Positions 56,026 to 58,014 of a stretch of DNA of 64,000 nucleotides are shown piece after piece. The DNA comes from an uncultured Verrucomicrobiales bacterium (GTDB lineage: Bacteria; Verrucomicrobiota; Verrucomicrobiia; Verrucomicrobiales; Akkermansiaceae): positions 3,608 to 67,607 of the forward strand of contig CALKLP010000112.1 of assembly GCA_937991965.1 (NCBI GenBank), given 5' to 3'. A program made the translations under genes and the position numbers. Every line of letters begins with the position of its first letter. Within the stretch, counting starts at the first letter, position 1. Under the pieces are notes generated by a model. That model was not told the DNA's origin. It made no database searches and saw only the letters and a program-made list of their open reading frames with translations.

Positions 56026-58014
56026 TCATTCTGTCTCAATAATGCGATAATCAAGTGGAGAAGTGATGTATTTTTTGAGCCTCTTCTTCAAGTAAGAATT
56101 TGGATGGATGATAATACGTTCTAACCCTTTGATTTCAATTTGCTTAGAAACTATTACACGATCTATCTCTCTCAAATCCAGAGTATTAATTTCTAGGCTA
56201 TCAAGATCATTGAGATAAATACTTCCACTACCAGAAATAACTAAATTGCGTAGAGGCAAGTATTTCATGGGGCTTCGCAGCTTATGGATTAGTTCAAGTC
56301 TAATGTGTTTTGATGATTTTATAAGCATTGTTTCATACTTAGCATCCATCTGTGCAGAAAAATCTTCAGTGCTCATGTTGAGTAGTTTTAGCACTGCAGT
56401 TACCACATTACCATACTGCGACATATCTTGACGAGTGGCGACATCGTACTGAATGATTTGTGACATTAACCTAGTATTGATATTCGGAATTGTCTCAGCG
56501 GCTTGTACAAAATTAACCATTTCTTGTATGGTGGGTCGATTGTCTCTTGAGAAGGCATAATTTGGACATAGTGAAGCGTAATCATAAAACTCTTTTCTAA
56601 TTCTAGGGATAGGATTTTCTTTTAATACAGCGGCAAAGTTCATTTTTCCTATGTTAGATCTAAATTGGGCTTGCCTAGCTTTTAGATTGAGAGGGTCGAT
56701 TTTTAGTGTTTTTTCTACAAGTATATCTAATTCTGAGTGAGCTTGAATCGGCTCTTCTAATTCTCCACTCGCACGAATAAACTCATCTAATAATGCATCT
56801 AGTTTTGAGTAAAGGATCTCGCTATCCAAGGCGAAATCTTCAAAAAGCCTATTTTGATAATTCATGTTTTCGATATCCTCGTGTAAAATATCTACTTGAG
56901 TTTCGCTTTCTTTTATAAGCTGCTGTCTCTTAAAAGCTACAACGCTTAAGGCGCATATTAGTGAAAATGATAGAGCGGACACTGTTATGAATTTAGAATG
57001 GCGAATAACAAATAACTTAGATTTACGTATGACATTTGCTCTCTCTGCCTTTGTAGCATGACCTGTGGTATATAGTAGTAGATCCTTTTGCAATGATTCT
57101 ACAGACTGATAACGATTTTCGGGTTTATACTTAGTTGCTTTTATAATGATTGCAGCTAGGCTTTTGGGGATTTTGCGAAGTTCTTCAAATTTATAATTTA
57201 CCCCTCCATGCTTGGATATTTCCATATCTTCTATTTGTTGAAAGGGGCGTTTTCCGGTAACAATATAGTAGAGAATGCAACCGAGAGCAAAAATATCAGT
57301 TCTTTGGTCTTTAGATTCATTGCTTTCTGCCTGCTCGGGAGCCATGAAACCTATAGAGCCTTTGATCTGCCCAAATAAAGTAAGATGCTGCGCTTGAAAT
57401 AAATGCTCTAACTCGGGATATGATTTTTCGCAATCCTCTGACACCTTTGCTAATCCCCAGTCGCATACGAGAACTTCCCCATAGTGGTCACATTGAATAT
57501 TAGCAGGTTTTAGATCTAAATGAATGATCCCCATAGAGTGAGCATAAGCGATAGCATCACATATTTTCGAATAAGCGGCTAGCAATTCTTCTTGGGGTTG
57601 GCATTTTGTATAGTCTTGTAAGGTGGTATTACCCTTAAGATCCATTACAAAGTAAGGCAACCCATCTGTAGAGATTGCTGTTTCATATATTTTGATGATA
57701 TTCGGATGGTTCAGACTAGAAGTAAGCCAGGCCTCATGAATGAGCTGATCATAATAGTCGACAGGGAGATCTGTTCGGAGGATGGCAACTGCTACATACC
57801 GCTTTGATCTCTCATCATAACACTTATAAACTTCTTTCAGTGCTCCTTTCCCAATTAATTGTTTGTTACGATAATACTGTTGAGAAGTCTGAGTTAAACT
57901 AGTATATGCAGGGCAGATTTCACTTAAATTATCTGAATCGGTAAGCAGGTCAGAGTCTATGACACCTCTTAATAGCTCGTTTGGAATATAAGCATGGTTT
58001 TTTTCATTAATCAT
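56026..58014 (-). CDS. transmembrane Hanks-type Ser/Thr protein kinase with atypical (WNK-like) lysine placement
   Basis: 662 aa. G-loop IGKGALKEV, beta3 VAVAIL (no Lys), HLDLKPAN, DWG and GFMAPE. One TM segment (FITVSALSFSLICALSVVAF), then about 300 aa of C-terminal domain. Confidence 0.9.
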   Translation of the reverse strand: MINEKNHAYIPNELLRGVIDSDLLTDSDNLSEICPAYTSLTQTSQQYYRNKQLIGKGALKEVYKCYDERSKRYVAVAILRTDLPVDYYDQLIHEAWLTSSLNHPNIIKIYETAISTDGLPYFVMDLKGNTTLQDYTKCQPQEELLAAYSKICDAIAYAHSMGIIHLDLKPANIQCDHYGEVLVCDWGLAKVSEDCEKSYPELEHLFQAQHLTLFGQIKGSIGFMAPEQAESNESKDQRTDIFALGCILYYIVTGKRPFQQIEDMEISKHGGVNYKFEELRKIPKSLAAIIIKATKYKPENRYQSVESLQKDLLLYTTGHATKAERANVIRKSKLFVIRHSKFITVSALSFSLICALSVVAFKRQQLIKESETQVDILHEDIENMNYQNRLFEDFALDSEILYSKLDALLDEFIRASGELEEPIQAHSELDILVEKTLKIDPLNLKARQAQFRSNIGKMNFAAVLKENPIPRIRKEFYDYASLCPNYAFSRDNRPTIQEMVNFVQAAETIPNINTRLMSQIIQYDVATRQDMSQYGNVVTAVLKLLNMSTEDFSAQMDAKYETMLIKSSKHIRLELIHKLRSPMKYLPLRNLVISGSGSIYLNDLDSLEINTLDLREIDRVIVSKQIEIKGLERIIIHPNSYLKKRLKKYITSPLDYRIIETE

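Follow-up and report, generated by a model that had tools for sequence, protein, structure and literature searches.

The kinase described here is encoded on the minus strand (56026..58014) of a 64,000-nucleotide stretch of DNA, referred to below as the window, from an uncultured Verrucomicrobiales bacterium (contig CALKLP010000112.1). It is a receptor Ser/Thr kinase of 662 amino acids, recognised from its open reading frame (ORF), a match to PF00069, an AlphaFold 2 (AF2) model and the ratio of nonsynonymous to synonymous substitution rates (dN/dS). According to the ORF, Pfam and the AF2 model, the protein is built from an N-terminal extension, a kinase domain, a single transmembrane (TM) helix and a periplasmic domain. 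The lysine normally found on strand beta3 of the kinase domain is absent, and a lysine at the start of strand beta2, K60, occupies the third glycine position of the glycine-rich loop (G-loop), the arrangement seen in the eukaryotic WNK ('with no lysine') kinases. The pattern aligns in register with known kinases, is conserved throughout a clade in which the two positions co-vary, and is carried by a gene that shares an operon with an extracytoplasmic function (ECF) sigma factor. The interpretation adopted here, with moderate confidence, is that the protein is an active receptor kinase which would use K60 for catalysis and signal to the co-transcribed sigma factor.

Active-site residues

The catalytic domain (residues 48-311; 57082..57873, minus strand, as are all parts of the kinase gene given below) was delimited by the Pfam envelope and by alignment to PknB. 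PF00069 (Pkinase) matched residues 48-311 with 146.3 bits against a gathering cutoff of 31.7 (E 1.5e-42), and Pkinase-type families were the sole Pfam matches on the full-length protein. The G-loop GKGALKEV (residues 55-62; 57829..57852), placed by codon check and by the PknB and WNK1 alignments, has Lys for its third Gly. This residue, K60 (codon AAA, 57835..57837), which we take to be the equivalent of PKA G55, is the proposed relocated catalytic lysine, based on its equivalence to WNK1 K233 and on the contrast between related kinases with and without a lysine in the loop. On strand beta3 the motif V-A-V-A (residues 74-77; 57784..57795; codon check and PknB alignment) replaces VAxK. An earlier reading of the DNA, made from the letters alone and called here the sequence-only reading, had assigned Ala to the beta3 Lys position of RYVAVAILR and Lys to the third loop Gly, and translation of the minus strand and a codon check agree with it on both. 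It had also stated that the A77 codon, GCC (57784..57786), is more than one substitution away from Lys; all three bases differ from AAA and from AAG, and three substitutions are required for either Lys codon.

The other catalytic elements comprise the alphaC glutamate E94 (LIHEAW; 57733..57735), invariant in the family, and, from the family alignment, the non-RD catalytic loop HLDLKPAN (residues 165-172; 57499..57522; L166, with D167, K169 and N172) and the Mg-binding motif DWG (residues 185-187; 57454..57462). The activation segment ends in APE (residues 225-227; 57334..57342; alignment and codon check), and T212 (57379..57381) aligns with T171 of the PknB activation loop. The position of the alphaC 'RF' arginine, residue 90 (57745-57747; family contrast), is Gln in this kinase.

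Alignment register

In a phmmer search of the PDB, RYVAVAILR was placed opposite PknB RDVAVKVLR and GKGALKEV opposite PknB GFGGMSEV, with A77 at PknB K40. For WNK1, a kinase-domain sequence identical to that of PDB 5w7t was used. BLASTP aligned the region IGKGALKEVYKCYDERSKRYVAVAILR to it without gaps, K60 falling on WNK1 K233 and A77 on WNK1 C250, and hhalign of the 119-sequence family profile against WNK1 returned the same ungapped pairing. The kinase therefore has the same pattern as eukaryotic WNK, as the sequence-only reading had claimed, and the alignment to WNK1 that it had suggested places K60 and A77 in WNK-type positions. Spacing between the G-loop and beta3 is gap-free in both the PknB and WNK1 alignments and is of PKA length. 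The AF2 model, built from 119 sequences with a mean predicted local distance difference test (pLDDT) score of 85, has beta1 at residues 48-56, beta2 at 60-67, beta3 at 72-79 and alphaC at 85-100, with no Lys inside the beta3 strand.

V62 is two positions from K60, as A75 is from A77, and V62 and A75 correspond to PKA V57 and A70. In PKA these two are residues of the catalytic spine (C-spine) and contact the adenine. Because K60 is on the same strand face as the adenine-side V62 and A75, its side chain should face the nucleotide pocket, as judged from strand parity with V62, A75 and A77 and from established kinase structure.

Conservation across the family

A protein search brought up over 120 full-length homologues with 33-38% identity; two more, one of which is a 505-aa fragment, were 91-92% identical. 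Their sources were Verrucomicrobiota, Kiritimatiellota (Pontiella) and Planctomycetota. The family alignment contained 119 sequences with about 35% pairwise identity. K60 was present in 119/119 and A77 in 118/119, the remaining sequence having Thr, while E94, H165, D167, K169, N172, D185 and W186 were each found in 119/119 and P226-E227 of APE was invariant. Position 166 was occupied by L (108 sequences), R (5), F (5) or M (1). An independent set of 48 further full-length proteins, retrieved via the C-terminal sensor domain alone, had K60 in 48/48, Ala (45) or Thr (3) at position 77 and Arg at position 166 in 0/48, and kept the E/D/N/D catalytic residues in 47/48. The sequence-only reading had named missing conservation of the G-loop Lys among homologues as grounds for giving up its proposal; the residue is invariant in both sets, and from these alignments the WNK-type pattern is not due to chance. 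In comparison with L081, a metagenomic relative that is 93.7% identical and has the same sigma-kinase junction, dN/dS is 0.20 for the whole gene and 0.17 for the kinase domain, and the gene is under purifying selection.

Co-variation and origin of the relocated lysine

A genome scan yielded 80 loci, in which family members grade into kinases of other phyla, and these were aligned to the family hidden Markov model (HMM). The contrast was drawn over 85 kinases, 32 with the loop lysine (K-loop kinases) and 53 canonical. The K60-type Lys was present in 32/32 K-loop loci and in 0/53 canonical relatives. Among the genome-scan kinases, Lys at the third G-loop position was always paired with Ala at beta3, the exception being one degenerate ORF with Val, and in kinases with the beta3 Lys the loop residue was always G, A or S; neither the Lys/Lys nor the Gly/Ala combination occurred. 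The exchange, G to K in the loop and K to A on beta3, is strictly reciprocal across the 85 kinases, which bears out the co-variation envisaged in the sequence-only reading. A Gemmataceae kinase (L067) has a Gly loop with Ile at beta3.

Only three kinase-domain positions discriminate the two groups: 60 (K versus G), 77 (A versus K) and 166 (L versus R, which turns HRD into HLD). A fourth, softer correlated change concerns the alphaC 'RF' arginine, which coordinates the activation-loop phosphate according to an atlas of bacterial Ser/Thr kinases (STKs) and is kept in 49/53 canonical and 9/32 K-loop kinases. K60 is the sole basic N-lobe residue gained relative to the canonical relatives. Both groups have R72 throughout, and it is therefore not compensatory. 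The sequence-only reading had regarded the remaining catalytic elements as retained but non-canonical; LIHEAW, HLDLKPAN, DWG and APE are all present, but neither DWG nor APE stands out. Most canonical relatives (40/53 of those with VAxK and HRD) share DWG, which therefore lies outside the novelty.

By its distribution, the relocated Lys unites a large clade of the Planctomycetes-Verrucomicrobia-Chlamydiae (PVC) superphylum as a synapomorphy and is not a single-gene oddity. Members of the clade belong to Verrucomicrobiota, Kiritimatiellota, Lentisphaerota and Planctomycetota. With the three diagnostic columns removed, a neighbour-joining (NJ) tree gathered all 31 K-loop kinases in one clade, with the canonical Chthoniobacterales kinase L030 as sister and the canonical Lentisphaeria kinase L045 nested inside. 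The exact K-loop bipartition received a bootstrap of only 10/100 because L045 nests within the clade. On this tree, a single origin of the Lys relocation in a PVC ancestor is likely, if not firmly resolved.

Three loci of the genome scan depart from the general pattern. L015 (5821-7854 of that locus) combines the loop Lys and beta3 Ala with a retained HRD, possibly an intermediate state. The nested L045 (5803-7533 of its locus) has a Gly loop, a beta3 Lys and NRD, and its position represents either a reversal or a long-branch artefact. L007 includes a truncated K-loop-like ORF (8990-9700) with VRYGMKRI, HLDINPEN and AWG for DWG, about 1 kb downstream of an intact kinase, and this ORF looks like a degenerating paralogue.

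Comparison with WNK and other kinases

The likeness to WNK (WNK1-4; PDB 5w7t, 6cn9) consists of a small residue where beta3 would have its Lys (Cys in WNK1 and Ala in the present kinase) and of a Lys third in the G-loop, set in a near-identical local motif (GRGSFKTV in WNK1, GKGALKEV here) that is ungapped to beta3. The alphaC Glu, the catalytic Asp/Asn and the Mg-binding Asp are kept in both. WNK has HRD and DLG (chloride site), whereas the present clade has HLD and DWG; a Pfam scan shows no WNK accessory domains in the present kinase, which, unlike WNK, is bacterial, membrane-anchored, equipped with a periplasmic domain and encoded in a sigma-factor operon. Identity to WNK1 is 26% (BLASTP), and WNK1 had the lowest score of 87 kinases against the family HMM, 61 bits, full-length canonical bacterial domains reaching >= ~156 bits. 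WNK was absent from the top 60 PDB matches by phmmer, the best match to a solved structure being PknB (E 5e-35), and a Foldseek search of the full-length model against the PDB was headed by generic kinases (ERK2, CaMKII, PknA, Stk1), with no special WNK similarity and no bearing on the lysine. Since WNK1 is the most distant kinase tested, the likeness to WNK is on this sequence evidence one of convergence and not of common descent, and that to POMK is taken to be convergent as well. Horizontal transfer from a eukaryotic WNK was rejected on the same PknB match and HMM score.

In POMK (SGK196), too, the VAIK lysine has moved to beta2, where it is essential (PMC10211241). By description, the HRD and DFG functions of POMK are also relocated and the enzyme phosphorylates a sugar, whereas here HxD, N and DxG stand in their canonical places. 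The beta2 Lys is required for activity in both WNK1 and POMK (PMC10211241; PMC1821047), a swap-back mutant of POMK is active (PMC10211241), and a 2023 review lists WNK1 and POMK as the only migrated-lysine kinases (PMC10211241). PknB of Mycobacterium tuberculosis resembles the present protein in architecture, with the kinase domain N-terminal, followed by a single TM helix and a sensor outside the cytoplasm; it differs in its PASTA sensor domains and in VAVK, HRD, DFG and the alphaC RF-Arg, which are all canonical, and the NCBIfam model PknB_PASTA_kin gave 185 bits here against a cutoff of 450. The CAK-chloro subfamily of Kannan et al. (2007) has lost the charge at position 72 (Met) and gained Arg at position 55, a change that those authors equate with the WNK shift (PMC1821047). 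That subfamily, however, belongs to the small-molecule choline/aminoglycoside-type kinase branch, uses Arg and not Lys, and has lost the alphaC Glu that is invariant here.

The bacterial pseudokinase families ActPs1-3, GLW, CP1, DYD and DLHK have several motifs degraded (PMC12599244; bioRxiv 10.1101/2025.01.12.632604), for example GLW for HRD, K to R in ActPs2 and DYD, and loss of the DFG Asp and the Asn in DLHK. The present clade is set apart from them by motif descriptions, being PVC-specific and missing only the beta3 Lys. The 2025 atlas of ~300,000 bacterial STKs recognises seven pseudokinase families, none of them PVC and none described with a beta2 Lys, and its text mentions neither Planctomycetes, Verrucomicrobia nor sigma factors (bioRxiv 10.1101/2025.01.12.632604). 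A literature search found no published bacterial Hanks kinase with a beta2 Lys, although supplementary classifications may mention one, and no published description of the arrangement in a sigma-linked bacterial kinase, in keeping with the sequence-only reading, which had supposed it uncharacterised. Relocation of the WNK/POMK type was thus known already, and what appears to be new is a bacterial clade of sigma-linked Hanks kinases with a convergent WNK-type lysine.

Linkage to an ECF sigma factor

The ECF sigma factor gene (58017..58649, minus strand; Sigma70_r2, r4_2 and TIGR02937) is co-oriented with the kinase and lies directly upstream of it, its stop codon 2 nt ahead of the kinase ATG, so the kinase is sigma-factor-linked as the sequence-only reading had described it. 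A homologous ECF sigma adjoins 20/31 K-loop kinases, usually upstream and with stop and start overlapping or abutting. It also stands beside 8 canonical relatives, and a sigma-like ORF lies ~670 bp upstream of the canonical sister kinase L030. Given these sigma genes beside canonical relatives, the sigma-kinase pairing probably predates the lysine relocation.

Pairing of ECF sigma factors with kinases is known from ECF43, ECF59-62, ECF217, ECF267 and ECF283 (PMC7826278) and is frequent in Planctomycetes (PMC7826278; PMC8999054). As in ECF43 (EcfP-PknT, EcfK-PknS), ECF59-62, ECF217 and ECF283, the present ECF sigma stands beside a transmembrane Hanks kinase and lacks an anti-sigma factor; neither the ORF list nor Pfam revealed a separate anti-sigma gene adjoining the sigma gene. 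Direct sigma-factor phosphorylation has been shown for ECF43 pairs, in which the kinases are canonical, and the characterised PknS differs from the present kinase in possessing the full set of canonical motifs, GxGGMG among them (PMC13147305). In ECF43 sigmas the DAED charges of region 2.2 are lost and a phospho-Thr is present, whereas the present sigma keeps DKED. Its region 2.2, DKEDLTQT (residues ~62-70; 58440-58466, minus strand; alignment of sigmas), retains the DxxD charges, as do other K-loop-linked sigmas, and has Thr for the usual QE Glu. In related K-loop-linked sigmas an uncharged residue (Q/T/A/I/L) mostly fills the QE-Glu position, E or R being occasional, and Acidobacteriota sigmas linked to canonical kinases mostly keep QE/QD.

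Short K-loop kinases (366-422 aa) occur in Victivallales/Lentisphaeria (L017, L019, L024, L025 and L029, including Victivallis vadensis; kinase at ~5850-7150 of the locus), directly downstream of tig-clpP-clpX-like genes (identified by eye) and with no adjacent sigma. The K-loop clade therefore has further partners and is not confined to sigma signalling.

Proposed mechanism and alternative explanations

In the mechanism proposed, K60 at the start of beta2, and not A77 on beta3, would anchor ATP's alpha and beta phosphates and pair with the alphaC glutamate E94. The periplasmic C-terminal domain would sense a signal and relay it through the TM helix to the kinase domain, which would act on the ECF sigma encoded upstream in the same operon, most likely by phosphorylation as in ECF43 pairs, and modification of the sigma would switch on its regulon. 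The Lys relocation would have arisen once, as the HRD arginine was lost and the alphaC 'RF' arginine became relaxed, in the ancestor of the PVC clade, which would itself have descended from canonical DWG kinases that were already sigma-linked. Several observations weigh against this interpretation. HLD (non-RD), DWG for DFG and the relaxed alphaC RF-Arg are departures also known in pseudokinases. The sigma keeps its region 2.2 DxxD charges, unlike ECF43, and an ECF43-like phospho-acceptor Thr is not conserved in region 2.2 of the K-loop-linked sigmas, so no phosphorylation site can be proposed. About a third of the K-loop kinases have no adjacent sigma, which is therefore not a universal partner.

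The strongest competing explanation, unlikely on balance but deserving of weight, is a pseudokinase, whose fold would bind the sigma, and perhaps nucleotide, without phosphotransfer and serve as a membrane anti-sigma factor or scaffold with its hold altered by the periplasmic domain. A cytoplasmic N-terminal domain followed by one TM helix and a periplasmic domain mirrors classical anti-sigma factors, and this explanation would also accommodate the lack of a separate anti-sigma gene beside the sigma, the absence of an ECF43-type phospho-acceptor motif, the missing beta3 Lys, HLD in place of HRD and the relaxed RF-Arg. However, D167, K169, N172, D185, E94 and K60 are invariant in the 119 sequences and kept in 47/48 of the independent set, whereas described bacterial pseudokinase families lose several of those motifs (PMC12599244), and a scaffold role leaves the reciprocal exchange of G to K and K to A unexplained. 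The invariant phosphotransfer residues, the strict reciprocity of that exchange and the low dN/dS together favour an active enzyme using K60 over a pseudokinase, the two options left by the sequence-only reading, a preference drawn from conservation.

Less probable again is an active kinase in which K60 is not the replacement, the phosphates being held by K/R64, by R72 or by metal alone while K60 contacts a substrate or regulator. Position 64 is basic in 116/119 close homologues and R72 is invariant, but canonical kinases with the beta3 Lys show the same invariant R72, and position 64 is K/R in just 18/32 of the wider K-loop set. Position 60 is the only one that turns basic exactly when K77 is lost, and WNK1 uses the same position.

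A register shift that places another Lys at beta3, which the sequence-only reading had named as its own main hazard, or a decaying pseudogene, is scarcely credible and was rejected, no support for either having been found: K71, just ahead of beta3, sits at a position that is variable across the family, the alignments from G-loop to beta3 are ungapped against PknB and WNK1 with PKA-length spacing, the AF2 beta3 strand (72-79) holds no Lys, and the 662-codon ORF is intact with dN/dS 0.2.

Beyond the active, K60-dependent receptor kinase preferred here, a broader scenario may be offered tentatively, as one we would sooner doubt than assert. The K-loop kinases may be an ancient clade of active 'with-no-lysine' receptor kinases, already present before Verrucomicrobiota, Kiritimatiellota, Lentisphaerota and Planctomycetota separated, and would then provide the first prokaryotic and third known independent beta2 catalytic lysine. 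The coordinated changes (G to K, K to A, the HRD Arg lost and the alphaC Arg relaxed) might have rewired activation to G-loop conformation or ligand-driven dimerisation in place of activation-loop phosphorylation, and many ECF sigma regulons of PVC bacteria that degrade polysaccharides might be under the clade's control.

Other regions of the kinase

The TM helix comprises residues 342-361 (FITVSALSFSLICALSVVAF; 56932..56991), at the hydropathy maximum and within an unbroken AF2 helix (340-394). The extracytoplasmic C-terminal domain (residues 366-662; 56029..56919), presumed to be the sensor, is modelled by AF2 (pLDDT 92) as a run of helical repeats with a small beta/alpha module resembling leucine-rich repeats after them. 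A Pfam scan gave no match to this domain, a Foldseek search of its model against the PDB returned nothing significant (best E 0.26), and the domain, of ~300 aa, is restricted to the present kinase architecture (104 representatives). The N-terminal extension (residues 1-47; 57874-58014), defined from the family alignment, is predicted with low-to-moderate confidence to be helical. Its consensus is YxPDxRL..AYxEA..LD..GLE.LCPSY.EL, with L15, A22, P35 and L40 conserved in at least 90% of sequences, and it is mostly confined to the sigma-linked Verrucomicrobiota/Pontiella subfamily, a candidate docking element. An NCBIfam scan revealed no specific family for the kinase, every kinase match being far under its cutoff, and no second kinase was found within the window.

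Genomic neighbourhood

Divergent from the operon lies a gene for a PEP-CTERM surface protein (58700..59401, plus strand; PEP-CTERM motif, low-GC island), a possible regulon member on weak evidence. The sigma-kinase operon and the PEP-CTERM gene form an island of low guanine plus cytosine (GC) content (56000-59400; GC 0.35-0.44 versus 0.48-0.55 in the flanks), bordered by housekeeping genes (U32 peptidase, LptF/G, epimerase, WecG and CysD/CysN-like), which suggests recent acquisition or a distinct evolutionary regime. Of the neighbours that could define a regulon across loci, the sigma alone is widely shared, sulfatases (7 loci) and PEP-CTERM genes (2 loci) being too weak. Sulfatase-like ORFs lie within 5 kb of the sigma-kinase pairs in L003, L005, L006, L007, L008, L016 and L027, and large ORFs of ~835-849 aa recur in several other loci. 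There are hints that sigma-kinase pairs may regulate the use of sulfated polysaccharides, which the sulfatase neighbours make a candidate inducing signal. No Rfam family reached its gathering score in the whole 64-kb window.

Implications

Motif pipelines label kinases that lack the VAIK Lys as pseudokinases, and would mislabel an entire, highly expanded signalling family of environmentally important PVC bacteria (Verrucomicrobiota, Pontiella, Lentisphaera). If the kinases are active, the clade would repeat, in nature and on a bacterial scaffold, the solution found by WNK and POMK; with canonical sister kinases nearby, it would be a tractable system for asking why and how the catalytic Lys moves and what losing the RD arginine does. 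Control of sigma factors by Ser/Thr kinases, shown only for the canonical ECF43 kinases, would in that case extend to a mechanistically different type.

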